Below, one piece after another: positions 7,073 through 38,301 of a stretch of DNA of 43,973 nt. Both the position numbers and the translations under genes were made by a program. Under the pieces are notes generated by a model. The model ran no database searches. It had not been told where the DNA came from and saw only the letters and a program-made list of their open reading frames with translations. How positions within the stretch are numbered: the stretch's first letter is position 1; each line of letters opens with the position of its first letter. The DNA is from Atractiella rhizophila (taxonomy: Eukaryota): NCBI GenBank assembly GCA_021432655.1, contig MU271534.1:1-43973 (forward strand), read 5' to 3'.

Positions 7073-11195
<4,123 letters not shown>

Positions 11196-12195: not shown

Positions 12196-13408
12196 ATGTC
12201 GTCAGCCGAAGACTTTCCACGCCTCCATCCCGAACTCCGCCAGCTATACGCTACTGTCTTTGCGGCTGGCTACCCTGCGCCGATCAGTTCGCACCCGTCC
12301 CAACATCTGAGGCTCATCCCAGTGCCTTCCGATCCAATCCCATCTTCCATCGCGAAGACAGAGAACGTAGAGATTCCTGGAGGGGATGGGCAGCCCTTAA
12401 GATTGGTGGTTGTCAGACCAGTGAATGCGGGACTGGAGAAGGTTCCTGCCGTAATGAGTTTGCATAGCGGGGGTGGAGTGGCTTTCGCTCCTGAGTATGT
12501 TTCCCATCTGTCCCAGAGCAGAGCAGGACTCTAATCAGTACCAATGGCTAGATTTAATTTTGGGGTTTACTCTGTCTTTGCTCAACAGGGCGTAGCGATT
12601 GTCAGCGTGGATTATCGACTAGCTCCAGAACACAGACTTCCCGCTTCTCCCAAAGATGCAGAAGCAGCTTGGAAATATATAACATCACCCGACGGCGCGG
12701 AGAGGTTAGGAATCGACACGAAAAAGTTGGGGGTACTCGGTTCTTCCTTTGGCGGTTTCCTCGCAGTGGGATTGGTACACAAACTTGCGCAGGACAAATC
12801 GGCAATAAAACCCAAACTCGTCATATTGGACTCGTAAGTTTAATGCAGCAAGCCTTAGGTGCAAGCTACTTATGAAGTATGTAGACCCCTGCTCAGCGAC
12901 CCAACTGTCCCGTTCGCGGCGGAACATGGGGAACTGAAAAAGTATTACTCGGTTCGTTCCCTCTCAGATTAATAAAACGCCAGACGGACTCAATGTGTTG
13001 TGCCTGCAGGTTTGGACCACCCAAAATGATGCAGACCTTAGCGTCCACCTCGACTCATCTACAGCCACCAGAAAGGCTTTGACACCGCTCAACACCATCT
13101 CGAAGATAGCGGCCTCTTCTTTGCCCCCACATTGTGCGTCTCCTCATACGTCCTCTATCGCAATCCCACAAAATGAAGAAAGACTAATGCTTAATCCTTT
13201 TCTAGATATAAGCGTAGCCGAATTCGATTCTCTGTCAAAAGGACAGATGGAATACGGATTCCTCCTCCTCGAAGCCGGAGTACCACTCGATCTGAAGGTA
13301 TGGAAGGGAACGGTGCACATCTTCCCTACCATTGCTGCACAGTTGGATATTGGCAAGAAAGCAATCATGGAATGGATCGAAGCTTTCAAGCTTGCCATCA
13401 CTTCTTGA
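12196..13408 (+). CDS. Hormone-sensitive-lipase-family alpha/beta hydrolase (Abhydrolase_3 esterase/lipase); ~5 exons
   Basis: HSGGG oxyanion motif, VSVDYRLAPEH, nucleophile GSSFGG, acid in VAEFDSL and His in KGTVHIF, spread over ORF pieces 12196-12534, 12544-12837 and 12995-13408 joined by short introns. Confidence 0.88.
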
Positions 13409-13965: not shown

Positions 13966-16551
13966 ATGGCAGAAGCTTTGTCGGAGAGAAAGCGGAGAGT
14001 GGCCATTGTCGGCGCAGGGCCTGTGGGATGCACAACGGCGCAAATGTTGCATGCCAGAGGATGGGAGGTTACAGTGTTTGAAGCCAGGGATTGTAAGTCA
14101 CCCGTTCAAGGAGCAATGGTTTTGTGTGCCTTGTTGTCATTTTTACTTTGGAGGACGCTGGAACATGTCGGTAATGCCCACGTTTGTGAGCACCGGCACG
14201 TTTGACATTTATATCCAGCAGAATCGGATTGTAATTTTCCTCAGGAGAGATTGGTCCCTTTCGTTACAACGGGTGTAGAAAGGAAGGAAGGAGTTTTCGA
14301 GATATATCGTATTGAATTTCATTACCTCGTGCTCATTCCGGCTTTGCATGCTTGTGCAGTATGATGGGCTTGCAGGTGGGCATCGCAACGGCTTCATGTG
14401 CCTGAAGTATTGTATTGATGGAAGGAGAAAAATAATTTCCGACAGGTTCGTAGAGGCTTCACAACCAGCATATAAACGATTTATAGCACTACCTTCTAAC
14501 AGGCAAGGCATAAAATGGCATGTTCCTATACGAGTCTTGTGACTGTTGAAATGAAGTCAGCATCCTTCAAGCGATGTGGGTTACAGTTGAGAATTCACAG
14601 GAGTAGATAGGGAGCGGTTGTGTGGTGCATTTCATCGCGCTTTTTAGTCAAGAATTCCAGTGTAATACTAAGCGGTTAATAAACAGGCGTAATTTTGCAC
14701 AATTTCGGGTGTTATACATCTTATCCCGTCTCGATATTGGAGATTGTTCCTTGCATTTCAATTCCGAGCCCTTCCAAGTGCATGTCGCGATTTCTATTCG
14801 CTACATCGCCCTCAAATGGGAGTGCTATATTACAACATGCATTTATTATCTCAATTACCCGGCGCTGCACTTGGCCACTTGGCCAATCTGTTCTCGATGA
14901 AGGTTTCGACGCCTCGCGTCTCATTCTCATCCGCCCTGTTGCGGTATGTGCCTGTGCCTACAGCTTGATGCTGCAACTTGTTTTCTCCTATCATCAATTC
15001 AGATTTACTGAGAACGTGCTCCTGATATGCACATCGCGTTTCTTCTCTCGGCTGGCGACCGCTTACCTTATTGCTTACCGATTTCCATCGACCCAGAACT
15101 CTGGACTTTCTGACCTATCGTATCGCAGCTCCAGCTCCACAGCTTGGCCGTTCCGTCAATCTCGCCCTTTCAGCACGCGGTCTTGCCTCTCTGCGATCGT
15201 TCTTCTCAGCTTCAACTTTGAACCGAATCGAGCAGATGATGGTTCCGATGTCGGGACGGATGATACATCCAGTCTCGTCCGCTGCTGAACCCCAGGCTTA
15301 CTCGTCTCAAGGGTTGTGTATCAACTCAATTTCGCGAGCTGAGATTTCGAGCATTCTTGTGAAAGCTCTTGAGGACGAAGGCGTCGCCGTACGGTGGGGT
15401 CAAAAAATCGCTCAAGTGAAAGTGTTAGACACTGCTGTGAAGTTGGGAGACTGGGAAGGAGATTGGATCATAGGATGTGATGGTGCTTGGAGCCGCATCA
15501 GAGATGCACTAGGGAGATCTGAAAGGTATGTGAGCTTGCAATGTTTGATCCTTGAACATTCTGAACCCAAATGTAGACTCAATACTGCCCAGACTTACGC
15601 TTCTCAAATTTACCTCGAATTCAACATCCCGTCGTCAGATCCCCCTGCTCTATCCATGAATCACCTGCACATCTGGCCGCGGCATGATTTCATGCTTATT
15701 GCCCTCCCGAATGCCGTGGGTTTAGCCACTATTATGCCACTGCGTATCTCACTTATTCTGTAGGACGGATCATTTACGAGTACATTCATGGGATCACCTG
15801 ATATGTTCAAGACCTATCAATCAGACGAAGCCATCTTGAACTTCTGGAAGTCTACTTTCCCAGATGCCGTGTCCCTCATCGGAGAGTCTCATATCCTTGA
15901 CCGTTGGCGCAATGGGTACAAAGGAGGTCTATTGAGTATTGAGGTAGGTTTCTTTCAGTCTACTAACACAGCTGTCTGAGCCGTTGCACCCTACAGTGCT
16001 CTCCTATGCATCATTCCGACAAGCTTCTTCTGTTAGGAGACGCAGCCCATTGCATGGTCCCTTTCTACGGGCAGGGTATGAACTGCGGCTTAGAAGATGT
16101 CCGTGTTCTCTCTCACTTCCTCGATCTATACTCCGCCTCTCCCGTCAACCCTGTCCCCTCCAAGTTACCGTTATCTCGAAGGGCAGGTCCGCCACTCGTA
16201 ATCAACGCGTTCTCCTCGCCACTTTCGCAGGCGCTACAAGCCTACGAACGACAGCGCGCTCCTTCCGTACACGCAATGCAGGATCTGGCAATGCGTAACT
16301 ACAAAGAAATGTCGTCATCTGTCCTCGACCCTATGTACCTCATTCGAAAGAAGGTGGACCTGTGGATGGCACGATTGTTCGGCAGCAACTGGAACTCGTT
16401 ATACGAGATGGTGACCTTTAGATCGGACCTTGCATATGAAGAGGCATTGAGAAGGGCTGAGCGCCAGAAAGTTTACGTGGATTGTTTTGCTATTGGGGTT
16501 GCTGCCAGCGTGGCAGGTCTTGCGTGGATCACATGGAGAGGGAGAAGGTGA
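13966..16551 (+). CDS. BNA4: Kynurenine 3-monooxygenase (FAD-dependent)
   Basis: VAIVGAGPVG, GRSVNLALSARG, IIGCDGAWSRIR, HLHIWPRHDFMLIALPN|DGSFTST, LLLGDAAHCMVPFYGQGMNCGLEDV, LYEMVTFR and a hydrophobic C-tail. Introns 14093-15128 (long), 15526-15576, 15716-15763 and 15944-15996. Confidence 0.92.
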
Positions 16552-20388: not shown

Positions 20389-21733
20389 TTACACTCGTTC
20401 GATTTGTTCAGGATACGTAAAGTTGTTCGCTTCCCTAATTTTGTCAAACACCTGTGAAAGCAGCGAATGACGACAGGCTACGCAGCACAACAAATAATGC
20501 TTACGTTCATCATCTCCGCGGTCAAGGCCCAGCTCATCGTCTCGCTCTCAATCTTTCCATCCCTGATGCATCTCGCCACCTCGTCCGCTTCCCAAGCGAA
20601 ACCCCAGATACCGCCTATCACGGCGAGGAATTATTGGGGAAGAGCGGAAAAAAGAGACGAGACAAACCAGGTCTTTCTCGGAAATCAAAGGTCTCCTCTC
20701 TAGCAGGCTTAAAGTTCTTGCTGTCAGCGATATTAATATCTTCTCGCTTATCCCACACTTGAACTGTGAAGGACTGAGGTCTATAAAGCGGCCCTTCCAC
20801 CCAAATCCTGCCTTTCTCTCCAACGACCAAAGCTGCTCTATCCGTTGGGTAGGCAGCGTAGAAGCCACAGGAGAGAACTCCCTGCACTCCTTCCGTTTGA
20901 AAGACAGCAGTGGTAGAGCCATCCACCTTTTGATCAGTGAAGATGATGCTCGAACCTTTGTAGTTGGCCGTCGTAGGAAGGGAAGGTGCGAGAAGTGACA
21001 TCCAAGTCCAGGAATAAGGACTGGCAGAGAATAACAGTGTCAAAGGCGGCACTCAACGCAAGAAGGGCCATACCCAAGATCAGTCAATGCACCTCCACAC
21101 AACATAGGATCGAGAAGTCGATGCGTTTTAGGAAGCAAATCCATCTTGATGTTGCTGTGGAGGTGAGACTGGACGTAGTGGATTGGTCCGATGACACCAG
21201 AGTTCAGTGCTTTCAAGACAGCTTTCGTGACCGGTTGAAAGCGTGTCCAAACAGCTAGCAAAGCTCATAAACAAAGGGGTCAATAAAGAGAAGCAAGGCG
21301 AACCTTCCATGAAGAAAAGATTCTTCTCTTTTGCAAGCTTGAACAAAATCTCTGCCTGCTTTCCATTTACAGTCAAAGCTTTCTCGCAAAGAACATGTTT
21401 TCCTGCTTTCAACGCTCCCAAGCAATCTTCATAATGTCTCGAATGAGGAGTTCCAACATAGACGACTTCAACGTTCCCATCCTTGAACATGTCGTCATAG
21501 TTGCCATACGACTTCACTCCACTCTCGTTGGGGAGATAGTTTTTGACGAATTCCTCCGCTTTATTGAGAGAAGAAGAAGAAGATACAGCAACTATCTTGT
21601 GCACGACGTTGTTATCAGGAGGAGAAGTGGAAGCCCGTGTTGATGCTGGCACGAGAAGATCGAGGGCAAACTTTTGAGAGATCCAGCCAGTGGCGAGGAT
21701 CCCCCATCGCAGAGTGAAAGGTTCAGTAGACAT
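20389..21733 (-). CDS. Gfo/Idh/MocA-family NAD(P)-dependent oxidoreductase (dimeric dihydrodiol / D-xylose 1-dehydrogenase-like)
   Basis: LRWGILATGWIS, VVYVGTPHSRHY, GKHVLCEKALTVN, FFME|AVWTRFQP, GGALTDLG|PY and WEADEVARCIRDGKIES. Four short introns; stop at 20389-20391. Confidence 0.92.
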
Positions 21734-22834
21734 ACTGAATCGAATGTGGTTGATCGATAGAGCAGCATTGGAGGAGCAACAACTGACGAAAGATGAGAGA
21801 GATGCCGAAAGCTTTCCGAATTTGAAAATTGATCAACATCCCCTGTTTTGGGATAATTTTTCTTGCTTTCATCCTTCAGCTCAACAGAGCGTAGGATTTG
21901 GAGAAGAAGGAAAGAGCAATGCGAGTGCAGACTGAAGCGCGTCGCAAATTCATCTTCTTCCAACAAGTCACGGCAGAACTTCGTCTCCGTGCTTGCGTTC
22001 TTCGATGAGATGTGCAGACCCAGAAGCCAGCGCTGCCAAAAAGGAAAACATAAGGTGTAGCTTGTACCTGCAAGCGGTGGCGTTCCCCTTTGGTTTCTCG
22101 ACATCGTTTTCTGACCTTCAGTGTAATTTTGACCTTAGTAAATGCATACGCAGTGTCTGCCACTCTGAGAGCAACTATGGAGAGATCTCCCTCTATTGAC
22201 ACCGACGTAAATCAACGATGACATGACAGATACAGATATGCCAAAGGTTAACACAGCAGGAGAAGCAAAGGTTAGCGCGACGAGTAGATCAACGCTGACC
22301 TTTTATTCACGGAGAACGCTGCAAGTAGCCTCATTACTCGCCCAATAGGCTAAGAATGAACACAGGACGAACGTATACCATCCTCCTCAAGTCCCTCGCT
22401 CAGAATCTCGAGACGCACCTATACCTAACCCGCTCTCATGCTCTCACATATCTGTCCTCACCTACACCTTCTTAACTAATTTCCACCATTACTAACACCT
22501 CTGTTGGGCATGGCTGCACCCAAACTCGGTCGTCGCCGAAAACCGTTGTTCAGAGCTTGTGCTACCAATGGAGGGGAAGGGAAACGAGGCGACGGCAAAA
22601 AACAGAACATAGAAGGAACCAACCGGAAGGCCTTTGGAAGAGAGTCCAAAGGCTGTCACAGACAAACGCGTTCAACAGGTTCAGGCAATGTCCGTGGTTA
22701 GTCATGGTTTAGGAGTATTCTACACGTGACGTGAGGATGCTCAACTATGACCATAACAAAAACATACATACATTGCGAAGAAATACAAAGACTCAAATAC
22801 ATCACCGGTTTAGATCGGTATATTATCACTGGAA

Positions 22835-25470
22835 TCAGGGGGCTTCTGAGCTTGCTTGCTCCTTCTCCTGCTCTTGTGCAGATCTCATACCTTCTTTCTT
22901 CATCCCATCCACCTCCGCGTCCTTTAATTCCTTTGCTAGCGTCTCCGTATCAAATTCCTTCACAGTCTCTTCATTCTCATCCAACCAGCCAGTGATGAGT
23001 TCCACAGTTCGTAAGCCAAGTTTGTAGCATCCGTCATTTGTATTTGCCTCAAACATCGACATATGTCTAAAACAGCCGTCAAAATAATCCTGTCAGTCAA
23101 GTAGAGTTACACACGCTTCAATCTCGTCATCGACCAATTTATTCAAGTTCTCTTCGAAAAATTTCGATGTCGGAGCATCTTTCACAGGTAAGGAGATAAA
23201 CGTCCGGAGGCCGCTATCTTTCTTCTTTTTCAAGCTGATATGGAAACTAGAAGCCATTTGTCAGTTAGGAACTGCTCAGACCATATATGAAGGAGCAAGC
23301 GAACCAGTGGAATCCCCACGACCCATTCTTCGTACTATGCAAAATATCATCTACTCTCTCGTTCAACCTCTCCCGCTTGTAGAGCTCTCCAACGAATTCG
23401 AAGTGACTCATCAACCAATCTACATGCCATACGGATTAGCATATGACAGCCATAAACACAAATAGGAAATATTTGAATGTCCAGACGCACCCATTCCTCC
23501 CGCAATCTGCTTTCGTTGCAAATATGCAGCACCTCCCGCGGCTATCAATCCAGCAGCACCAGCAGCAATCTTATAAGGCATCCATCCACCAGAAGTAGGA
23601 GGGGGACCGCGAGAGCTGGCGACCATTGTTCCTGAGGCTGCAGCGGCGGAGGCTGTGCTGGACGCATTACTCGAGAAGGGAGAGAGGCCAAAGGCATCAA
23701 GGATCTGATGACCAGACTGTGCATACGAGAAGTATTTCGATCCTTGGGACGTGATGAGCGAGTGATTTAGTCCATAGTATGGCGTATCGTAGCTGAGTAT
23801 GCAGGTAGAGTCAGTCGGTGGCACTCCGGATCTTTTTCTCTCGATCCGATTGGATGCTGCATCCCAGGCTCAATGCCAACAGATCAATCTCTCTGTTAGA
23901 AGGTTCACGTCATGTCGATCGTGAGAACCGGGAATATGAGCAACCACAGCTCTAATCGTAACAAGCCTGAGATGCGATAGAGCGGCAAATCAAAACATGA
24001 ACATGCTCTTTCAGGTCTGCTGAGATGGCAAAAACGGAGGAACTGGCAAGATCTGGGAGAATCCGGCACAATATCGTTACGACCTGAGGCTATTTACTCA
24101 AGGTGATATTCCCACCCTCGTCCAGTTTCGGTCGGGACTCGGTCACTGGAGGAAGCACCAAGGTGATTTTCGGAATTGGCATATCTCTTTCTGTTCGTCC
24201 GAATTGTCTTTGACCATACTCGGACTCTATCTCGCGGTCGTGACTTCTGTCTCACCAACCTCGAGCATGCATTGGCGAAGGATCGAAGATCCATTACCGA
24301 ACGATTAAACAATTGGAAGGACATTATCAAGGAAGCCAGCGGGCATGGCTGCTCCGTACCATGGACTCCAAAGATCAGCACGATTGTCAGCAGGATCGCC
24401 GCATAACACAGTTCTACCTTTCGTGCTTCTAACGTGGAGCAGTAAGACCGGGAGTCAAGCGACGAAATGAAGTGCGGGTGTCCGTCCAATGCTGGACATT
24501 GAACACCTTTAGAACTAGAAGCAAACTCTGGATATTCCAGCTTAAGACCAATTATAGGAAATTAAAGATGGGGTGAGGCTCCAACGTCAGGTGATGGTTC
24601 ACGTCTGCTTAGAAAGAACGTAAGGAAAGCAGGTCCAATAAAGCTCCGTCGGCTGTAAGAGGCTAAAAGTTTAGGACCTCTAGACTTTTAATAGAGCAGA
24701 GATCTATGTGATGCACTTTGTGCATTGCATTTGTATCGCGTAAGAGAAGTCACGTATCGACATTTTTCCCGATGACATCTCCTCTGTTGGCCTCCAGACA
24801 TCGTTAAATGCTACGCAGCCAAGTTTCTAGAGAGTTGTCTCCCTTTCAAGAGGGGCTAAAGCTGTCTACATTGTTTTTGTGGGAAGGGGAGCCAATGAGA
24901 CTCTAGTTTAAGTCGACTGCCCCCCCTATGGTCACCACGCGATGGAAGTGTTATCACACGAGCATATCGCAGTATCGTCAACGGAAAAAAGCTCAGAAAG
25001 AGGAGCGAAGCGAATCTCAGACCGTATGAAGAGACGTACGCAACGACACCGACTATCCCAAGTTCCCTCCACACCCTACTAGCGCAATCTGCCGCCAATA
25101 AACCACCCATAGAATGTGCGAGTAGGATCGTCCGAACTCTACCCCTGCCCTCTCCAGCGGTAGGGAAGCCATCGGGCCAAACCTCCATCTGTCTCTCCAC
25201 CTGTGCGCCAGTCAACCAACCTATGAACTGATCGACAGCATTTTCAAGAGAACCACGTGTATCGTACGTGGGATATACGAGCGAGTGGACGGAGTAGTTT
25301 GGCAGAGAGGCAGAGAGGATGGATACGAGCCGAGAAGGGAAAGAGGAGAAGGACACGCTCGATCCTTTGAAACCGTGAATGAATACGAGCAGGAGAATAG
25401 TGGTCGGAGGAGGTTTGATTAGGGCGAGCCCGGGGAAGGATATGGAAGGGGCGGCGAGAGGCGAGGCCAT
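22835..25470 (-). CDS. DUF676-like fungal alpha/beta hydrolase (putative serine esterase); 5 exons, ~1.25-kb first intron
   Basis: Exon 1 has LVFIHGFKGS and ILLAHSMGGLLAAD...GVVA. It splices across intron 25039-23793 to YDTPYYGLNH, followed by WLMSHFEFVG, RTFISLP and DEIEAHMSMF; stop at 22835. Confidence 0.85.
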
Positions 25471-27047
25471 CTTTGAACTGGACGCTAAGCCAACAATTGT
25501 ATTCAGCTTGCAAACTTCAGGATTCGGAAGTCGGTTTATTGCGGATTGGGCAAAAAATCCCTAGCGTATTTGCATTGTGTCCAACCAATTTGGTTATGAG
25601 AAGCGAGTTAGATGTGAAGGAGAGGAACGCCTTCCATTCTATGTGTCACTCGATTTATTGACATTGAAAATACAGTTTCACCAAATCTTCGTTTCTGTTT
25701 CCAAATGAGCGAATATGATACTCCTAATTCAGACCAGGTCTCTCATGGAACAGTCAGAGGCGTCAATCTTGCTTGGCTCACTACCTTAGCGTACAGCTGA
25801 GCATTAAATCAATAACAATTAAGCGCCGTTCCAGGCATACGTCAAGATCGGGAATTACAGAAGCAGAAGCAGAAGACACAGATGCATGGACCGGATCACA
25901 GCCCACATCAACAGGGCTGAAAGACTATCGCCTGCATGTGCACCCGAATGCTCTTGAAATCGGGACACGCACCAACTTTCGTAAACAATCTAGCAGTACA
26001 AAATCCTTCCGTCTATTCGGGCGTCTGCCATTCCCTTCAGGTCTCAGTCAAGCAACACCGTTGATGAAGCTATGAAGTTCTGGTTCTGTCAATGCTGGAT
26101 CTGACGTACAAAGTTGGCAAATGTGGCACGTGAATAGCCACCTGAAAGTCAATCGCGGTGCACAACACAACCAACGAATTTAAGGGGATATCCCTGGGTC
26201 CCTGACAGGCGAAGAAGTAGGAAAGGGTATCTATTTTGACATTTTTTGCAGAAGAACAGGGGAAAGGTTGTCATTCCAGGTGTGTTTCTTGCGTATTCTT
26301 CAGTCCATTATTATGTTTATGCTCTTTTCTTGCTACTCTTCGCGTTGTCTTCGTGTCCACATGCACACACCAGCAGCGCGCCTTTCGGCTGCAGAAAATA
26401 CCGAAGCTGTGAACCATGAACTTGACGGAGACTAGAGACTGCTACTTCATGCATTATGTCTGTATCAATGATTGGGGTTCCCGCACTCCAAGCAGGATGA
26501 ACGGCACAATGTGAATGTTTATCTGGTAACAGTCGTGTTTGGCCATGTGAAGGGATGCTAACGTACAAGTGTTCCCGAGACAGGAGCCTCGCCTGTTCCG
26601 AAGGGCTTTTGGTCATTCTTACAGCCCTATATCATGAGAGAATGAAGCAAACGTCTGGACAAGAATCCTTCCTTGAACTGTTTGAACAGCAAGATTTTGC
26701 TTAAACTGCACTCCGTCTAACAGATTGAAGTACACATCCATCACCTCGTCGTACATTTTGCATATGTCTCAGTGTAGTTTTGCCGCATTAGCATTGTCCT
26801 TGCCGGTTCCTGCTTTCTTCCTCCCTGCTTGATACTAGCTACTTCGCGCAGTATGCTTCGGCCAGGGCATCCCTGTCCGACTGAGGTTAGATAAAGCGGA
26901 AAGTGGCCAAACAAGCTCTGGGTTAGACGAAGTGGTAACGGTCTTTTGATAACAAGTTAAATTTTATTTCTTTAGGACCCACACCACGACGAGAAGGATC
27001 ATACTCATTCATTGACAAAGTTCTCGTCTGTATTCAGAAACAAGACA

Positions 27048-28066
27048 ATGTCCAACGCCACCTACCGCATCGTCTTCTTCCTCTCCACAGCCGGACAGGA
27101 CCCCTCTGAAGTCTCGATTCCTTGGAAATACCTCACCTCTCAAGGAGTTCAAGTGGAATTTGCGACCGAAGATGGAAAGCCAGCGACATGCGACCAACGG
27201 ATGATCAATGGACTTTTGGCCGTCTTGATGGTTTGCAGTCCATTTTATGGTTTTCTGCAGGACGCTAAGGAGACGAATCATAAAAGGGGGCGACAGCTGA
27301 AGCCAAGCGAGCACACGCCGAACTGGTCCAGACCGAAGCATGGCAGCACCCGCATTCGTGGACCTCCCCAACCTTCCAAGAAGACCTGAAACAATATGAC
27401 GGCATCCTGCTACCTGGAGGACACGACAAAGGCATGCGTCAATACCTTGAGTCGACCTCCCTCCAAAAACTGCTCGCCGATTTTTTCCCACTTTCTTCTC
27501 GCTCCGGAAGTGACAAGAAGGTCGTGGCAGCGATCTGTCATGGTGTCCTCGCGCTCGCTCGCTCCAAGAAGGGAGACAAAAGCGTACTCGCGATTAACGA
27601 GGGAGTAGAGACGACTACCCTACCTGTACATTTGGAAAGGTTCGTCGTACCTCACCCCGGATACATATCGCAAGCTGAAGATTGTGCATGGTGGAACCCA
27701 CAGATTCGCTTACGTTGTCACTGCTCCCTTCCTCGGCAAGTACTACAGGACATATGACGCATATTGTGCCACGGAGGTAATTGCACATCGCTCATCTTTC
27801 TCCCTGCGTTGACATACATGGAAGGTTCAATCATTGCTCGCCAAACCCTCCCTTTACAAAAGAGGTGGTTTTTTCGATACCCGTCCTTTCGTTGTGGTGG
27901 ATAAGAAGTCAGTATTCCCTTCCTCACACACCCCCCTATCGCTGATGTCCTGACATCCTGATGGGATAGCCACTATTATGTTTCTGCGAGGTTTCCGGGA
28001 GACGCGCAAAAGTTCGCGGAGAACTTTTTACAGCTGTTGAAGGAAGCGAGGGCTGTTTCTGCATGA
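27048..28066 (+). CDS. DJ-1/PfpI (class I glutamine amidotransferase-like) protein; 5 exons
   Basis: GQDPSEVSIPW, VEFATEDGKPA, YDGILLPGGHDKGMRQYLES, VAAICHGVLALAR, YYRTY and YVSARFPGDAQKFA; stop at 28064-28066. Confidence 0.9.
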
Positions 28067-28290
28067 AACTGGCATGTGGCGTCCAGAACTGAGCCAGAGC
28101 ATCATCCGATGTTTAATTTATTTTGATATTAGTATCCAGATACCTTGGTTACTTGATTCCCTTGTTTTGACCTTATGAGGGATTCTTTGCAATTCATGCT
28201 TCATAAACATACATTCGACAGTGGCAAGGCATATCAGCTATGATTTCTGCGATTGAACACGATAGGATCGAAATAAATAGGGAGAACAGA

Positions 28291-31200
28291 TCACTCAACC
28301 TTCGTAGCATCCTCATCAAGCTCATCTTTATCCTCGTTCGGAGCTCGACCTCCCTTCTCATCTCCGCTTCCTCCATTGAATGAAATTTCATCTTCCGAAT
28401 AAAAAAACTCTTCAGGCTTGTCAAGTTCTTTCTGTTTCTCCTTCTTCTTTTCCTCCACCTTTTTTGCAGGTTCAACCACCACGTTGTCTTCTGCACCAGG
28501 ATCATTAGAACTGGAATTGAAAGCAGTAGGAGGAGGAGGAGCCGAGGGACCGTTGGTAGAGCTTCCAGGAAGTTGTATCGTCGACATGTTTTGTACCTGT
28601 GCCTCTGGTCGTGGATGCTTTGGTGGTCTTCCTCGCTTCCGCGGTGGGTCTCCAGGCTGTCGACGAGTGTATGGACGTTTCTGCTTCGGAGCTGGTTGAG
28701 CCGTCGTCGTGTCGAGCGCTGCGGAAGGTTTAGATGTAACTTCCGCTTTGGGAAGAATCTGTTGAGGAGGAGATGTAGGTTTCGGTTTAGAGGAATGGGA
28801 GAAGTCATCCGCTCCGGACGAAGTAGGTGGAGCGAAAAAGGATTGGCGGCCGAGGGAGTTTTGGGATATGGCTAATAATGCACAAAACTGGTTAGAAGGA
28901 ATGATTTGGAGCTCGAGGAGCAAGCATACAACAGTCGATGCAAAGGTTATCCCGGTGCTGAGGGGCTTGGCGACAATTGGTACAAAGCTCCCGTTGACCC
29001 TCCGTGTCACCGCCAGACGGATTAATAGCCAGCATATACCCGGAAGGTGGAGGAGGGTACAAAGCAGGGGCACCTGCACGATTAGAGAGTTTAATCATCC
29101 CAAAATAAAAGAGGGCAGGAATAAACGTACCCATTGTAGCCCCTCCAGTCCCCAGTTGTTGTTGCTTCTTTTTTTTGGAAGACGTTGAAGCTTGGGGTGA
29201 AGAAATAGGGGCAGCGGATGAAGGGTCTTGGTTTGGAGCGAGAGGAGGGGAACATAATTGAGGTTGTGATTGTACTTCCGTTCGAGGAGACGACTGTTGG
29301 GCGGCGGCAGGAGATGCTCGAACTGGAGCAGGAGAAGTGGTTTGATCTTCAGGAAGAGGGGCCGTTTGAGAAGGGGGAGAGTCTAGAACCGGGGGGGGAG
29401 AGAACTGTGGAGGAGGAAGTTTCTCACGTGGTGAATAAAACATTTCCTGACCCGCAGCTGGTGATGCATCGCCTTGTTCGAAGTTGGATTCAAAGTTTGG
29501 CTCTCGCAATTGGGAATGATGCTGAGGGAGAACAGCATGAGGAGGAGGTTGAGGATGAGGATAATGAGGCATGTATGTTGCCCCATTATGAGGAGGATAT
29601 TGGGCCATGGGTGCCGAACCCAACAAAAGCTCGCCGTTTCCTTTCTCGGAGTGATCCCTCCTCCTAGGATGGAAGCGATAGTCGGGATGCTTGATCTTGT
29701 GAATCTTCTTCTGCTCCTCCGCAATTTCGTGATACGGTGCCCTATCTTCGTCTGTCATCTTCTTCCAGATCTTGGATGCTTCCTTCGTTATTTGCTTGGA
29801 ATTGATCAACCCCATTGCCTTTGCCTCTTGTCTAGCCACTCGATAATGCTTCAGAAAGACAACCCAGACATTATCCGGTCTGTTGATGTGCCCTGGACTC
29901 GTCTGGCGCTGATGCCTTTTCCTCGGCCTCACCGCACTCGATCCAACCGAGGACGACATTTGCTGAGCTGAATCGGCAGGTGGATAAGGAGATGCGGATT
30001 TATCCTCTTCCACTTCTCCTTCCATCGCAGGATTAATGACTGTGTTATCTGCCAATGTATTGTCTTCGTTTCGGATCAAGAGATCTCGTTCCTGCATCGT
30101 AGGAGGACGAGGAAGAGGGGGTGTCGGAATCCGTTCTTCTTCCGATCCTTCCGGTCGAGACTCTTTCGCCTCTCTTCCCCCTCCTCTCCCTCTTCCACGT
30201 CCCCTTCCCCTCCCTCTTCCTCTCGTTGGCTTCGGCGCAGGCAGGAGTTCTTGAAAGCGTGGATCTATGAATCCACCGACTGGATGACCAAGAATTGGAA
30301 TCTGAGTACCAGGAGGAAGGGTTCCCACAGGTCGCCCGTCGCGGGTATAGAGGACTTGATCGTGAGGTCCAATGGGGAGAGGAAAATGTGGCATGTGAGG
30401 ATGTTGCACGATAGACGGGCGACGTCCATCTATGAAAGGAGGTGGACCATGACCGGGATGCCCCATTTGATACTCGTTGAAGGGATGATGGGGGATGTGA
30501 CGTCCTTCGTCTACATCCATTCGATGGGAAGACGAGGGACGATCTGACGGACCGGGAGTGTCGCGAATTGGGATGGGATCCTGTTGAGTGTTGCTCACTC
30601 GAGGTCGTTTCGAAAAGGGTTTTTGGTCCTCCTCTTCGTCGACGGTCATATCAATCACAACTCTTTCGTCATCTTCGAGACCGTCTCGACTTCGTTGTCT
30701 TTTGGAATGTGATGCTCGGGAAGGGTGTCCGTATGGAACAGGGAATCCAGGAGGAACCTATGTCCCAGATCAATATGTCGCCTAAAACCTATGGTGAAAA
30801 GGCGAAATATATACGTAGAGGGGATGGCCAGGCGGCGGACCATGGACGTAACCACCAGGAGGAGGATGTATAGGCATCATCGCGGCCATGGGAGGACTTG
30901 GATGTTGAGGATGAGCGAATGGAGGTCCATGGATGCTTCCCATTCGAGATCTCTCTCTCTCGCGTTCTGCTGCGAGGGCTCGCTCTTCCTTATTGCGTGG
31001 CACCTTATATGCGTCCCCTCCAGCTTTTTGACCTGGAAGTTGAGGTTTATACCCCTTCTCCGTGCCAAACATCGCCGTACTCCCAACTTCCCAGTTCGCT
31101 CGCGCATTCCCATCCGCCCTAACCTTCACGTGCCTCTCTCCTCCGTCTTCCCTCCCGTCCATCGAAAAGACTGTCATCAACGCGGGCGGTCTCTTCGTCG

Positions 31201-32344
31201 AAGGTCCCGAGGAAGCATGTGGCAGAACCTCATCATAAGCGGACTGCCAATTCTCAACAGCCCTCGCCTTACTCTTATGTTGACCTCTCGAGTTAGACCC
31301 ATCCTTCCTCGATCGCGTTGACTGATCTTCAAAAACTCTCGGACGCTGTTCATGGGGATCCACAATCATCTCCTCTCCATCTGATCCCACCCCCCCTTTT
31401 GCAACATCCACTCGAAAAGCAGGCTTCTTGACTTGATTCATATACTCCGCCTGCCTTCTCCTCCGCTCCTCAGCTTCCCCAGTCCTCCAATCTACCCCGG
31501 CCGAATTCCGAATGGCGTTCGTAGCCGGTGGTCCACCGTAGAAAGACTTCATGATGCTCATGTGACCGCCGAGGTCTTGACGCCAGACGTTCATCATCCA
31601 CTGATCCTTATGAATATCGGTGAGAGGAACAACGTTGTCGCGTTCGTATTGGTATGTGATGAGGTGATAGATCGTGTCCATCGTTTTGAATTCGAGGTGG
31701 CGCCTGACGAAAGGAGGTGTCTGAGAGAGGGATGTCCACGATTGACAACAGCGCGCTAACATTAGCGGATACGTGATTTCGGTGCTTTCTGACCTTTTCA
31801 TGCCCAGAGAATTGTGAGCGACTCAAGGACAGTCGCAAAGGAAAGAAACGAACCAAACGATTCCATCTTCAAATTCAGGGATACCAGAAGGACCTTTGAA
31901 CCTTTCGCCGAGTGAGTCACGTCGAACATGTTAGGAGAGAAAGACGAACACCCAAGTATTACCAGGACTCGTTACACGATACCTCGCGTCTCCCAACTTC
32001 ATCAAAAACTCAATCACGGCTGTATTCATCAGAGGGAGCTTTCCCAAGTGAGCAGCATGCACGACGAGCATGGCACATTCTTCCGTATCAACTTTTCTGG
32101 TAGCAGAGAATTCACATCAATCCTGCACTGAGCGCGGGAACGTGGGAAGTTAGGAAGCGCACCCAAACCAAGTGCTCTTCACGTCTTCGTTGAAAATTTT
32201 CTTGCCATCAGGCAGGGTCAGAAGTGGAGCGTTCGGATCGTGCTCGTCACTCAATGGTGCATGTTGTTCCGGTTGCTGAGCATGTTGAGGCGGAGGAGGT
32301 CCCCTGATATGAGGACTCTGGTGTGGTTGAGGAGAATGTTCCAT
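28291..32344 (-). CDS. Large multi-domain transcription factor: divergent Gti1/Pac2 (WOPR)-like N-terminus + RG repeat + MATA/SOX-type HMG box + CxxC-x10-CxxC + AT-hook; 7 exons, ~1,200 aa
   Basis: Introns 32162-32097, 31949-31902, 31853-31794, ~30814-30758, ~29130-29073 and ~28929-28872 link ORFs 32150-32386, 30782-31801, 28892-30658 and 28291-29079 in frame. HMG box HINRPDNVWVVFLKHYR...ITKEASKIWKKMTDEDRAPYHEIAEEQKKIHKIKHPDYRFHPRRR (~29657-29895). AT-hook RKRGRPPK (~28618-28642). Confidence 0.8.
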
Positions 32345-34201
32345 CCCACGCAAAAAAAAATACGCGTTTCTCGGGTAGGGAGACAAGGGGGCAGAATTGC
32401 GTTGTTGACAAGGGCGGGTTTATATGAAAACGGACTGAGAACAGCACAACTCAATTTGATATCATCAAACTAAACTTTGCGATCATGCGTTTTACTTTCA
32501 GCTGCTGCGGAGTGAATGGGATCTAAAACTCTGTGTCATTGACTCAATTCAACACTTTGATCGCTTGCACATGCCTGACGGTGACTGGGCAACGATTTTC
32601 TAAATTTATTGAATAGAAAATTCCGCTTTGAATACCTTCTGTCTTCTCCTTTAGCACAATCTGTGTTCCACCTTTAGCGAGATTCTTAGCCATTCCTGGC
32701 AGGACCCTGGACACATGACAGGACCAACTAATACACCTCAATTCACACGTCTTCCTTCAGCTTCCTTGTCTATTTGTGAATCATTTGTAGCCAGGCGCTC
32801 TCACAACGCAACGCTTGAGACAAGTTGAATAGATTTCGCACATTCCAGAAAGATGCAATGACAAAACAAACTTTGGCTGGAAGATAATTAAAGACACTAA
32901 ACGGTTCTAAAAACGCTCAGCATATTAGATCATCCGTAGTGTCAGATTTAAATTACTCATCCATAAATCTGCAGATGCCGGGAACAGAGCCTGATCTTGG
33001 TAGATCTTGGCTTACATGTATACTCTCGGCGCAATCAAACAAATGAAGGTTTGCAAGACAATGGCCATTGATTGAAACTGTGAAAAAAGTGGCACACGTG
33101 CATTCCTATTACTCACCCGTTGAAAGTTTAGACACTTATTCAGGAATAAGCAAAAGGCGAAAATGCCATCTCAGGGAGCTCCTGGAACTGGTCTGCTATT
33201 TAGTTGATAATCAGATTGTAGCGTTTCACGTGATTATATCTGCAGTTACATTCGGAACCTTGTTTTTGTCTGATTGAGTTTCTGCAACTGTGCGTGTACC
33301 TCCCTTCTCGCTCCTGTACATGCGAGCATCCACTCGTCCCCCTTCCTGCGTTCTCACGAGCTTGAGACTTAACCTTCTTCAAATTTACGTGATGAGGAAG
33401 AGGAATTTTCGAATGGTACTGGATTGAAAGTTCCCTCTTCTATCTGTGAGTGATTTCTTGCGCATGAAAAGGACGTTAAGACTCTCCAAGTACTGTATTT
33501 TTCATATGACTGCCGGAGGCTTACCACATGAAGACGCTTTGCTAACCTGTTGGTGTTGCAGTCTTTTGTTGTTAGCATTTTACACTACCTTGCACATTTG
33601 GCCCTACTCTCTCTTTACCTATATATAGCAATGCTGAAACACTTCCTCCTGTCCATATAACACAACACAACGTCCTGCTCTCTGATCCCCCAAGCACCAC
33701 CCGAGGCTGTGCTTTTCTTTGTCTGAGCTCAATGTCAAGCTGCAATATTGTTTTGCAGCAAATACAATCTAACTGTTGCAAACGAAATGCTCACAGGATG
33801 AGCCTGTTTATTCATTTGTTCAGACTCGAGTAAAAGCGGACACATTTTCTTATGACACGGTTGTCCAGTTGCCAACGACTCACGCTCCTTCCTTTCGTAG
33901 TTGTCAGGCAGTTAAAACAATAGCTACAATGCCCTAGTGACTAGGAAGTGGAGGACTGTGCGATTCGGTGTCAACAACAAAGCGAAAGAATGCAACCTGG
34001 AACAAGTCTCGCACGTGCGTTAATGTCGCAAACGCCGCACTATGCCGAAAATACGCATACGTTCCCCGACTTTGACCAGCCACAAGGCTTGAAACTAGAG
34101 AGCGTTCTTTCGTATATTCAGACGGCAACGCCTTTATAAAGGCCATTAGAGCTTCTCCTTCTTCAGAACTCAACCAAGTCCCCTTCAACCTCTCAAGCAA
34201 G

Positions 34202-35013
34202 ATGGCTCAACCTCTCACGGTTCCACCGCACCCCATTGGGCTGTTGCCTCAGTACACCAAACACAGTCAACCGATCGCCATAAAGATCAAAGAACATGTT
34301 TTATCTTTATCGGGAGATTCGTTCACGATTAAGGATATCGGAGATAACAGCATCGTCAAGGTGGATGGAAAGTGGATATCTCTCCACAGCAAGAAGAGTG
34401 CGTTTCCGTCACTTTTCAGGCGTTGTTCTCATGGTTATTGTCACATTATTTTTCGACTAAAGCCTTGCGAGATGCCAATACAGATGCTGAACTTTTCACC
34501 ATGAAGAAGAAGCTCTTGAGGATCCACCAAACCTATGAGCTAGTTGACGCGTCCGAAAATGTTCTGGCTGTACTAAAAGGAAAGTGGGGCATCAGCGCGA
34601 AGATCGATGTTACTTTCAAAGTGCGCATCTTCTATCATGTCCAAGCAGATAATGCAGGCTGATAGTTGGCTTGCTAGAATTTGGCTGGAAATGGAGAGGA
34701 AGTGGTCCTCAAATTGAAAGGCGATTGGTTTGACAGAAAGGCGGAGATTACTTGGGACGATAAACCGATCGCCTATATATCAAGGAACTTCTTCAATGGA
34801 AGAGGTGCGGATTATTCGTCCCTTGTCCTCTGCTCCTCTTTAATTTGCTGGCATAGAATTAATTGGTGACGCTCAGACCTACGTTGTACAGATTGCGCCG
34901 TATGGTAAGTTTGCATCTTCACTAACGTCGTCAGCTCATACGGAAATGCAGTTGATGTCGCACTCATCATTGCGGCCTGCGTTGCTCTTGATGAAAAAGA
35001 GAATGAGGACTAA
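34202..35013 (+). CDS. LURP-one-related (LOR / tubby C-terminal-like, DUF567) protein; 5 exons
   Basis: IKEHVLSLSGDSFTIKD, KVDGKWISLHSKK, LKGDWFDRKAEI, IAYISR, QTYVVQIAP and VDVALIIAACVALDEKENED*; stop at 35011-35013. Confidence 0.88.
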
Positions 35014-36037
35014 GTGCTCCCAAGCAAATTGTTGTGTAAAAGGGTTGTATACCGATCGCTTTGTGATATCCGAACGGAAGTTGAAATCTGCCAGTCAATG
35101 TAATTCAATTTATTACAACAAGTCTTTCTGTTAGTTACGAACATGTTGAGCTTCGAGGCTCGAGGAGAGCTCGAATTCATTCTAAGCTCTGTTCTCGCCC
35201 CCCTAAGCCTTGCCTTTGATTGTCAAGTGATATATTACGCACACACAACCCTGTATGAACGAATCTCTTTCACAAAGGACATTTGAGCCAGAGTCGTCAT
35301 GACCTGAAGGTCCATTTGAAAGCACGTGAGTCCAGCACATCTTCTACTCGCCACTAGCCGGATAGATCATTGACTGACATCATTTCAGGATGTACACTTG
35401 CCTGTGGAGGTACAGCAGATCCAAAGAAGTCACAAATCGCCTGCACGGACCCTCGAACTTTATTTAAGGTTCGAGGTTGACAGGAGAAGCTTCGAGAGGC
35501 AGCTGCAGGGAGCTGAATTTCCCTCGTCGACTTAGCAAAGACGTTCCAGTTGATGGAAGGGTAATCGCAACCGGAGTTTCGAACCACTGATTGAGCTGAT
35601 CTTCAGACTTCAAGAGTCAAGTTCAATGAAAATGACACAGACCTACCCACGAACATTCACATTTGCATTGAGTCCTTGCGGATGACATCCTCGTCTCCTC
35701 TCAACAAAACCCAGGTCGATCATCCAAGATTTCTAATGAGATCCCGTAGCGGAAACGAGACTCCGAAATTTGGGCATAATGCTCTCGAAAATTGTTTTAA
35801 AGGTACGTACCATCCCTACATCACGCTTTTACAGCTCTAAAACCTCTAGAAACTAACATCACCTCCGTCTTGAAGCTCTTCGAAGCTTGAACACGAAGAA
35901 CGTAACAATAATCTCTTCTCGGCTCTCTATCCTCCATAAAAGCAGCCACAATGTCTACACTACTCACCATCAACTCGCACTCAATTCCTGCTTTGTCTTC
36001 AGTTGCCAATCCACAGAACTACTACTCAGTCGAACAA

Positions 36038-36823
36038 ATGGAGCCATCCTGGGTCGGGTAAGTAGCTAGTTCATCTGCCCGCATTGTACCCTGACTCTAG
36101 GCCAGACAAATTACGAGCGAAAACGATGCTTTAGTCATAGTCGTGCGTTCTTCGATCTCACAGACAAGATGTCTCATTGACTCTTTGCAGATGGCCGCTT
36201 CTCAAGGTCTTTTAGGCCGCCTGACGGATTGTCCTTCAGTGGACGAGATGAGAGCCATGGCTTGGTCTGGTGAGATTCTGCTCACTCGTTAAGTTGACGC
36301 TGAAATTGGCGACAATAGGTGCTGTTTATGTGTATGTTATCTCTCAACTCAAGTTTCTCTTCTGAAACAGAAGTGGCAGTTGGGAACAGAATGAGGCGGA
36401 ATTTTCTAGATGGGCGGATGGACTCAATTGGCAGGTCTTCCCCCTTTTCTTTCATTCGTACTCTGATAATAGCTTGGAATCGTAGGGCATCTACACAGCG
36501 TCAAGGCTCCTTTACTATTAGCACTGTTGGTTCTCCAAATGTTTTATTTGGGGATATTCCTCTCATACTGATTCGCTGTAGGCATCAGCTTCTCCCGCTG
36601 GAAGCCGGTTCATGAAGCAACAAATTCGGTGCACGACATCTGATGGACATATTCTATATCTCGTGGCATATATTTCAACTCGTGAGCATCTTTCCAGCCG
36701 TGCTCCTGCTACAGCGCTAACCAGTGAATAGGTGACATTCCAACGGCGCAGAGGGTTGCGGATGACCCGCTTCTAGGTTCTATTCGTGTCCCTCCCGGTT
36801 TCTTCACCACTAGGGCGGTTTAA
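36038..36823 (+). CDS. Minimal stand-alone Gti1/Pac2 (WOPR)-like protein, ~143 aa, 8 exons
   Basis: Introns 36058-36105, 36143-36190, 36270-36318, 36332-36379, 36431-36485 (GC-AG), 36526-36581 and 36682-36731 give MEPSWVGQITSENDALVIVMAASQGLLGRLTDCPSVDEMRAMAWSGAVYVWEQNEAEFSRWADGLNWASTQRQGSFTISTASASPAGSRFMKQQIRCTTSDGHILYLVAYISTRDIPTAQRVADDPLLGSIRVPPGFFTTRAV*. This matches the order of WOPR consensus blocks (T.xG.I...DAL; SG.VFVW; RWxDG..W; HL.xY; DP.L..I). Confidence 0.75.
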
Positions 36824-37041
36824 ATTTGCAAGAAAGCGGCAATTTGGACGATAGACGTATCAACGTTGCATGACTGCATGGGATTCATAACACTGAAAAG
36901 TTCATAGGATCATCCGTCATTTCTTTTCATTATGTAACCTCATCGTGCGCAGTGCACTTCAAACTCCAATATTGTTTCAATGGTTGTTTTGCAATACAAC
37001 ATTTCAGTTCACTCTATACATCACTGCTTCTCTACGACTTC

Positions 37042-38301
37042 TTAAGCATCTAAAGTCTCCAAGGATGACCCAGCCTCATCGATATCTAGGACGCGCCAAC
37101 TTGCCTCAATCTGACTCGTCGCACCTGGCATGGGTGTATCTCGGAAAATGCCCACCACCGCTTCGCCTATCGCTTCAAAATTGTCCGTTGCAAGAGCGAG
37201 GATAGTTGGACCTGCACCGGAGAGACAGATGCCCAACAGTCCAGGAAGAGAGTCTGGGGAAAGCGATAGGATAATTGGAAGCGCTGGGATCTGTACAAAT
37301 AATTTCAGTTCTGGGACCTGAAGAGGCTCAAGACAAACGTACCAGGCCTGCGCGGAAGGGTTGGTGGAGACGATCCTGCATCCCTTCGTATATCACCGCT
37401 GCATTCGGTGGAGCAGTAGCGAGCGCAGTAGTCAACACTGCTAAGCGTTGAAGGTTGAAAACCTGCACATGTGTTGTCAACAATTATGAGCAAGGATGGA
37501 GTAGAAGGACGGACTGTATCTGCTCTAGAGTATTGGGGTGGGAGGACATTTCTAGCTGCAGCCGTCGACACCTCAAATTTAGGAATTACAACTATGGCCT
37601 TAATGGCGTTGTTAATCTGGTATTTAACCCAGTTTCCAATCCTCCCCGGCGGGGCAGGAGGCTTTGGAATAAGACCCCAACTCTCATTCGCATCGCTCGG
37701 AAACTCGGGAAGGACTTCAGACAGGGGGACAGAGGTAGCAGAAATCTCTGAAGGGTTAAGAGAGCGGATGAAGGAGCCCACGAAACCGCCGAGAAGTGCA
37801 GCAGTAACGTTGTCTGGATGACGTTCCACCATGAGGGTGAAATCGAGCGCTCGAGAGCTCGAGAGAGATAGATCGCCAATGGCTGATGCAAGAAGGACAC
37901 CAGCGACTACCGCTGCGCCGGAGGAGCCCAGACCCCTCCCGAACGGGATATCATTGGTCACGTCCACCTCGAGCTGAGTCTTTGTCGCTCCAGGAAGGTC
38001 AAAAAAGGACATGATACCATGACATCGAAGCACATAAAGTGCCACTCGTGTGATGAGGTTCTTGTAAGGATCGAGGGGAGCTTCTGAAGAGCCTTCGCCG
38101 CTATATCGCAGCACGGGATGAGACGGCTGCTCCGTAGCGATTAACCGTACGTCAAGGGTGAGGTAAAGCTTGTAAGCCAGTCCAAGGACGTCAAATCCTG
38201 GCCCAATATTTGCTGAAGTGGCTGGTACACGTATTCGCCATCGTTTCTAAATGCCTTGTTGAGCATTTCATTAGCAGTACTGGACTTACTTCTGCTGTCA
38301 T
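37042..38301 (-). CDS. THR1: Homoserine kinase (GHMP family)
   Basis: MTAE|KRWRIRVPATSANIGPGFDVLG, NDIPFGRGLGSSGAAVVAG, VERHPDNVTAALLGGF, MQDRLHQP and GICLSGAGPTILALA; stop at 37042. Confidence 0.95.

Follow-up and report, generated by a model that had tools for sequence, protein, structure and literature searches.

What relationship holds between two neighboring genes of one fungal regulator family when one of them also codes for a second kind of DNA-binding domain? The question is raised by contig MU271534.1 of Atractiella rhizophila (GenBank assembly GCA_021432655.1), of which we analyzed positions 1 to 43,973 of the forward strand (43,973 nucleotides, hereafter the window). WOPR factors, also known as the Gti1/Pac2 family, control morphology and virulence in fungi as master switches. 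Within an intron-rich eukaryotic region of the window, two genes with domains of this type are oriented divergently, gene A on the minus strand and gene B on the plus strand. They are 3.6 kb apart, and a single plus-strand gene, probably of the LURP-one-related (LOR) type, lies in between. Gene A additionally codes for an HMG box. A preliminary description of the locus, made from the sequence without database searches, had taken the two genes for products of an old local duplication and had likened them to a regulator and its microProtein. Here we find that both genes encode WOPR-type domains, that both are transcribed and that they share three homologous introns. The balance of the evidence leans slightly toward an overall explanation in which two fast-evolving WOPR offshoots, with putative functions, arose by local duplication and one of them became fused to an HMG box.

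Gene structures and encoded domains

Gene structures were examined using contigs from four public runs (X16, X1, X2 and X3) placed on positions 28000-37200. Run X16 is RNA-like, as its contigs skip introns and one of them ends in poly(A) at position 35124. The X16 contigs are about 1% divergent from the window. Their depth differs greatly among the three genes and cannot be used to rank the genes by expression.

Gene A extends over positions 28291..32344 of the minus strand, from the ATG at 32344 to the stop codon at 28291-28293. It consists of seven exons (32344-32163, 32096-31950, 31901-31854, 31793-30815, 30757-29131, 29073-28930 and 28871-28291), and its spliced frame is open over 1235 codons, giving a product of 1235 residues. 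All six introns (32097-32162, 31902-31949, 31794-31853, 30758-30814, 29074-29130 and 28872-28929) are present as joints in X16 contigs, and some of these joints are also found in X1, X2 and X3. The joint for intron 32097-32162 contains one synonymous difference, at position 32165. A 1413-letter X16 contig connects exon 2, by way of exons 3 and 4, with exon 5, which carries the HMG box. In gene A, a single open spliced frame contains both the WOPR part and the HMG box.

If confirmed, this structure would correct the public gene model of the large gene. The closest database protein to gene A is another A. rhizophila protein, P0001 (KAH8930507.1; 893 residues), with 71% identity over 77% of the query. 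Its gene model begins just after the WOPR part. Compared with window positions 29131-30757, it also lacks the second half of the HMG box, and because of this omission its HMG box scores only 22.7 bits in Pfam, below the threshold. The public model of P0001 is probably incomplete. A word-index search of the protein database with exon 2 of gene A found no protein. Since no database protein contains this N-terminal exon, the WOPR-HMG fusion is absent from the searchable gene models.

Gene B (35951..36823, plus strand) is split into eight exons (35951-36057, 36106-36142, 36191-36269, 36319-36331, 36380-36430, 36486-36525, 36582-36681 and 36732-36823), so that seven introns interrupt a coding sequence of 519 nucleotides. 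Its 172-residue spliced product is letter-for-letter identical to the A. rhizophila protein P0002, deposited as KAH8918001.1 and KAH8927027.1 from two contigs. Identical proteins are thus encoded at two loci of the same assembly, which may represent two haplotypes or a recent segmental duplication. Contig joints were observed for introns 36431-36485, 36526-36581 and 36682-36731; the joint 36429>36485 can be shifted by up to 2 places. The first of these introns is of the GC-AG type (GCAGGT..TCGTAG). A micro-exon of 13 nucleotides (36319-36331), flanked by introns of 49 and 48 nucleotides, is carried in two runs, at the loose end of an X16 contig and as the letters between an X1 joint. Introns 36058-36105 and 36143-36190 were placed by the identity with P0002 and not by contig joints; for the former, this is also the sole splice that keeps the frame open.

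Several details of gene B in the preliminary description had to be revised. The start codon had been put at ATG 36038, whereas the database model begins 29 codons upstream, at ATG 35951. The acceptor after the VYV codons had been put at 36370; the actual boundary (36379|36380) is nine bases downstream in the same frame. The intron in DGLNW is recognized as the GC-AG intron 36431-36485. Upstream of the gene, about 350 nucleotides before the start codon, a 46-nucleotide GT..AG intron (35560-35605) is removed in an X16 contig, and an X3 contig is unspliced across 35388-35638. This intron may belong to the 5' untranslated region of gene B or to a separate transcript.

The assignment of gene B to the WOPR family is straightforward. 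In the form of P0002, it matches Pfam family Gti1_Pac2 (PF09729) with 54.5 bits (cut-off 23.6; E-value 2e-14), residues 33-107 being aligned to profile positions 1-75, and the same family is annotated for P0002 in the database. At the sequence level it also matches the solved structures of Wor1 (4qtj, E-value 3.1e-6) and YHR177w (4m8b, E-value 0.0014). For a finer comparison we built a WOPR profile of our own. A search with P0002 gave 883 matches at E-value <= 0.001, and the best 150 of these 883, minus P0002 itself, provided 149 library representatives, so that gene B is excluded from the profile. Gene B covers profile columns 4-144. The AlphaFold model of gene B, computed with an 85-row alignment, is confident (mean predicted local distance difference test score 89.9, predicted template modeling score 0.79). 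Foldseek aligned the model to 4qtj_A with an E-value of 1.8e-10 and a root-mean-square deviation of 2.6 over 147 columns (target-normalized template modeling (TM) score 0.76). Against Wor1 WOPR-DNA complexes in general, E-values were about 2e-10 and target-normalized TM scores 0.76-0.79. The match to 4m8b_R has an E-value of 9e-10, and the next match, beyond the WOPR structures, has an E-value of 0.016. Judging by the model, gene B codes for a bare but complete WOPR fold that has a linker of 11 residues and lacks an activation tail, as had been anticipated for a WOPR-only protein.

The N-terminus of gene A is much more diverged. Residues 54-178 (31637..32185, minus strand) match columns 6-121 of the WOPR profile with 25.0 bits, both conserved halves of the domain being present in the proper order. 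The first 220 residues score 30.4 bits on the same profile, compared with 5.0 bits for the best of 2000 shuffles of these residues. When gene A was aligned to the WOPR family using hhalign, the probability was 96.7% over 106 columns. A six-frame profile scan revealed no other WOPR-like stretches in the window. Single-exon translations of the two genes (n=10) have no Gti1_Pac2 match in Pfam at E-values up to 10, because introns fragment the domain, which in gene A spans four exons. As judged from these sequence comparisons, the N-terminus of gene A is a very diverged WOPR (Gti1/Pac2) domain.

The degree of divergence can be expressed by the conserved columns of the profile. We considered 44 columns whose conservation among 119 representatives reaches 80% or more; the representatives themselves keep 30-44 of these columns (median 42). 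Gene B keeps 22 of them and gene A 17, and in gene A an F takes the place of the invariant W in the RWTDG motif. Seven of the profile columns are conserved arginines (27, 33, 36, 37, 43, 64 and 75). Gene B retains two of the seven (33 and 64) and gene A a single one.

These losses, together with the dependence of gene B on a 13-nucleotide micro-exon and a GC-AG intron, might suggest that gene B is a decaying duplicate without a function of its own. We see a very slim chance of this. The frame is intact over eight exons, the product is identical at two loci, the unusual splices are used in two runs and the predicted structure is a confidently modeled, complete WOPR fold.

The second domain of gene A is an HMG box (29675..29884, minus strand). 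It matches Pfam family PF00505 with an E-value of 3.8e-10 (40.5 bits, cut-off 25.4). Among solved structures, 29 chains match at E-value <= 0.001, with SOX-9 at the top (E-value 6.3e-10), along with SOX-11, SOX-2 and SRY. The box is of the sequence-specific, SOX/SRY type and has the HPDY..PRRR signature at its end. A zinc knuckle and an AT-hook had also been proposed for gene A. The spliced translation does contain a CX2CX10CX2C cysteine knuckle (residues 1025-1042; 28931..28984, minus strand), and the introns flanking its exon are confirmed by contigs, yet the knuckle matches no Pfam family. The AT-hook-like motif (28612..28644, minus strand), a GRP core with basic flanks, was spotted by eye; its match to PF02178 (E-value 2, 9 bits) is below the cut-off of 17.4 bits. 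Out of the proposed modules, the HMG box is thus well supported, the knuckle is present as a motif and the AT-hook remains a candidate.

Shared introns and the origin of the two genes

Genes A and B have three introns in common, at columns 13, 56 and 73 of the WOPR profile and in phase 2 in both genes. They fall in the very codons that the preliminary description had pointed out. In gene A these are introns 32097-32162, 31902-31949 and 31794-31853, and in gene B intron 36058-36105, the intron in VYV and the GC-AG intron in DGLNW. RNA contigs support all three in gene A and two of the three (VYV and DGLNW) in gene B. The remaining four introns of gene B, at columns 25 (phase 0), 52 (phase 1), 86 (phase 0) and 120 (phase 1), have no counterpart in gene A. 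If the three gene A introns were placed at random among 348 position-phase slots, six of which are filled by gene B within the range common to both genes, the triple coincidence would have a probability of about 3e-6. The introns were therefore inherited from a common ancestral gene, and the three shared introns are homologous.

We also asked whether such introns are a general property of the family. A metagenome scan with a 21-sequence WOPR alignment showed all three sites to be uninterrupted in 80 of 80 loci (the best 80 of 281 confirmed). This set is biased toward intron-less genes, since the column-56 site lies within the search pattern and unbroken matches are ranked higher. The result therefore indicates that the introns are not universal, and it has no bearing on the lineage studied here.

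Starting from the gene structures, transcription, domain identities and intron homology, all established in the present analysis, we infer the following history. Genes A and B would go back to a single intron-rich WOPR ancestor, the simplest route being an old local duplication. Such descent would explain both their spacing of 3.6 kb and their three shared introns. One of the duplicates would later have been joined to an HMG-box gene, giving rise to gene A. A later, dispersed duplication would link gene B with P0009, a 455-residue WOPR protein encoded on another contig of A. rhizophila. According to a review, Gti1 and Pac2 are single copies in fungi, with no duplications reported (PMC8232033), and the extra linked copies found here therefore point to a local origin. 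Taken together, an old local duplication is plausible.

To place the two genes in the family, we used phylogenetic analysis at two levels of sampling. One tree contained 122 rows. The other contained 36 rows, 16 chosen and 20 picked at random from 120 full-domain representatives, P0007 being excluded for its redundancy with P0010. In both trees, gene B is grouped with P0009, with Shimodaira-Hasegawa-like approximate likelihood ratio test support of 96 in the larger tree and 95 in the smaller one. P0009 is itself derived, keeping 25 of the 44 conserved columns and three of the seven arginine columns. Gene A, the branch of which is by far the longest, belongs to no well-supported group in the 36-row tree. 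When the 36-row tree was constrained, a clade of A and B cost 1.75 log-likelihood units (approximately unbiased test, p 0.447), and a clade of A, B and P0009 was 0.83 units better than the free-search tree (p 0.514); neither was rejected. On the basis of the sequences, the data would fit a clade at the species level that unites the three strongly derived genes A, B and P0009.

A number of observations weigh against such a history. The two domains are identical in only 22 of 115 aligned residues (19%), and gene B is in 118th place among the 121 matches of gene A. The free trees do not join the two genes, and all the groupings rest on long branches, which the tree tool flagged as unreliable. Four proteins of Paraphysoderma, a member of a distant phylum, surround gene B and P0009; this grouping looks like long-branch attraction. 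Moreover, the contig of P0001, the A-like paralog, is neither of the two contigs that carry P0002. Without an identical copy of gene B on that contig, the A-B linkage is not kept at every copy. Finally, every WOPR gene of this lineage could have inherited these introns from a common ancestor, and the introns would then be uninformative on the specific relationship between A and B. The proposal of local duplication is thus upheld as far as intron homology is concerned; the part of it that makes A and B each other's duplicates is called into question by the low identity, by the grouping of B with P0009 and by the unplaced position of A.

Part of the same evidence might be read as adjacency without a shared local origin. 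According to this explanation, the introns are general to basidiomycete WOPR genes, and A and B come from different old WOPR lineages that happen to be neighbors. The very low identity, the separation of A from B in the free trees and the closer relationship of B to the unlinked P0009 would all fit. We nevertheless consider it unlikely. Two members of a family described as having two single-copy genes per fungus (PMC8232033) would hardly be expected two genes apart; a rough estimate, based on about six copies in a total of some 14,000 genes, puts the chance below 1%. In addition, neither the A+B clade nor the A+B+P0009 clade is rejected, the latter giving a slightly better tree, and the introns are not universal, as the 80 uninterrupted metagenome loci indicate, although that set is biased to unbroken genes. 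The safest reading is that derived WOPR genes expanded in this particular lineage; two of them would have stayed neighbors after an old local duplication, and one of these two was fused to a SOX-type HMG regulator.

Neighboring genes and putative functions

The gene between A and B (34202..35013, plus strand) has five exons and is a neighbor that stands outside the WOPR pair. Its first exon matches positions 10-54 of the PF04525 profile (E-value 0.0073, 16.4 bits) and its second exon positions 55-95 (E-value 0.055, 13.5 bits). Each match alone is below the cut-off of 24.5 bits, but the two are consecutive on the profile. The preliminary description had placed a LOR gene here. The gene is highly covered by contigs, which reveal its four introns and the poly(A) end near 35124. 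The 1.85-kb spacer between gene A and the LOR-type gene is uncovered except for a low-depth X16 contig at 33622-33824.

Elsewhere in the window, Pfam searches of long open frames detected a PAK-type kinase with PBD and Pkinase domains (8917-10663, plus strand), an alpha/beta hydrolase (12938-13408, plus strand), an FAD-dependent monooxygenase or squalene-epoxidase-like gene (15026-16551, plus strand), a GFO/IDH/MocA oxidoreductase (21128-21832, minus strand), a second alpha/beta hydrolase (24856-25560, minus strand) and a GHMP kinase (37305-38246, minus strand).

The window was also searched for the canonical WOPR motif. With at most one mismatch there were 10 matches against 9.94 expected, and there was no exact match. 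In terms of sequence, the intergenic regions shared by the genes show no sign of WOPR sites.

As for function, where all our statements are by way of inference, gene A would code for a probably nuclear, DNA-binding regulator of 1235 residues. Judging from the families concerned, sequence-specific binding would most likely be provided by the SOX-type HMG box, aided by the candidate AT-hook. Because most residues conserved in the family, among them those of six of the seven arginine columns, have been lost from the WOPR part, it is probably an accessory module making contacts with DNA or protein, and not a reader of the canonical WOPR motif. Gene B, by analogy with the short Pac2/Pth2-type paralogs, is most likely a stand-alone small factor with altered specificity. 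It would act alone, either as a DNA-binding or as a competing factor.

A different relationship, that of a regulator and a microProtein, had been suggested in the preliminary description. The bare WOPR protein B would bind the WOPR domain of A or compete for its sites, thereby tuning or blocking A. Gene B is indeed a single-domain relative of a domain in a much larger neighbor, and the two adjacent, divergent genes are both transcribed and correctly spliced in run X16. On the other hand, Gti1/Pac2 factors are reported to bind DNA as monomers (PMC8232033), so no dimerizing surface is known for WOPR. The low identity of the two domains (22 of 115 residues), the closest relative of B being P0009 and not A, and the absence of an identical B copy from the contig of the A-like paralog P0001 all argue against a dedicated pair. 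Furthermore, P0002 itself is the sole annotated B-like protein found. We regard such a pair as distinctly improbable, and favor a gene B that acts on its own.

A more elaborate variant may be envisaged, for which we see a slim chance. Here, a SOX-type HMG factor would have recruited a WOPR domain devoid of the canonical DNA-contact arginines, for regulation or for protein binding. The neighboring stand-alone WOPR protein, a product of the same local duplication, would modulate this factor, either through direct binding or through competition at composite sites. The result would be a WOPR-based decoy circuit private to Atractiellomycetes.

Relation to known systems

The obvious reference for both genes is the Wor1/Gti1/Ryp1/Sge1/Ros1 class (PF09729; structures 4QTJ, 4QTK and 4M8B). 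The N-terminal WOPR fold of this class comprises two conserved halves; gene B matches it in Pfam, in sequence and in predicted structure, and gene A matches the family profile over both halves. WOPR factors are described as consisting of an N-terminal WOPR domain and an unstructured tail, and a fungus as having one Gti1-type and one Pac2-type gene (PMC8232033). Typical members of the class score 113-155 bits in Pfam, compared with 54.5 bits for gene B, and keep 30-44 of the 44 conserved columns, compared with the 22 and 17 columns of B and A. Gene B differs further in missing the C-terminal tail, and gene A in the added SOX-type HMG box. None of 94 scanned WOPR family representatives of 300-1400 residues contains an HMG box, while 92 of the 94 match Gti1_Pac2. 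One family member, P0064 (850 residues), combines a partial Forkhead domain with Gti1_Pac2 and is either a further fusion of WOPR to a second DNA-binding domain or a merged gene model.

Short WOPR-only paralogs are not new. Those already known include Pac2 (PMC8232033) and Pth2 (PMC13729134), and full-domain representatives of about 150-250 residues are common among the matches listed (the best 150 of 883). Pac2 of S. pombe and U. maydis and Pth2 of Candida and Nakaseomyces resemble gene B in having little beyond the WOPR domain and in being a second member beside a larger one (PMC8232033, PMC13729134). In contrast to them, gene B has lost most of the conserved arginines. In the tree it is also apart from the named pac2 representative P0013 (Ophiocordyceps) and groups instead with a species-specific paralog. 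Short WOPR proteins occur as well in Paraphysoderma sedebokerense, a distant fungus, where P0153 and P0024 (242 and 254 residues) share a contig, have consecutive accessions and look like the products of a tandem WOPR pair.

The HMG box of gene A invites comparison with the fungal SOX/MATA-type regulators, among them Prf1, Rop1 and Ste11, which likewise have an HMG box of the sequence-specific type. None of these regulators is known to have a WOPR domain. The literature listings for WOPR and HMG, and for Gti1, Pac2 and HMG-box, contain no title or abstract describing a WOPR-HMG fusion.

MicroProteins of the Id and LITTLE ZIPPER type act via a dimerization domain. Like gene B, they are small proteins with a single domain that are related to a larger regulator with several domains. 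The difference lies in the domain itself, since WOPR is reported to be monomeric on DNA (PMC8232033).

Compared with the described WOPR set, A. rhizophila thus stands apart in having extra, strongly derived copies. In one copy, the same transcript also codes for a SOX/HMG DNA-binding domain, an architecture captured by none of the public gene models searched, and another copy is a minimal fold of 172 residues. If confirmed, these genes would widen the range of known WOPR family architectures and would offer a natural test of the role that the WOPR fold plays after the loss of its conserved arginines.

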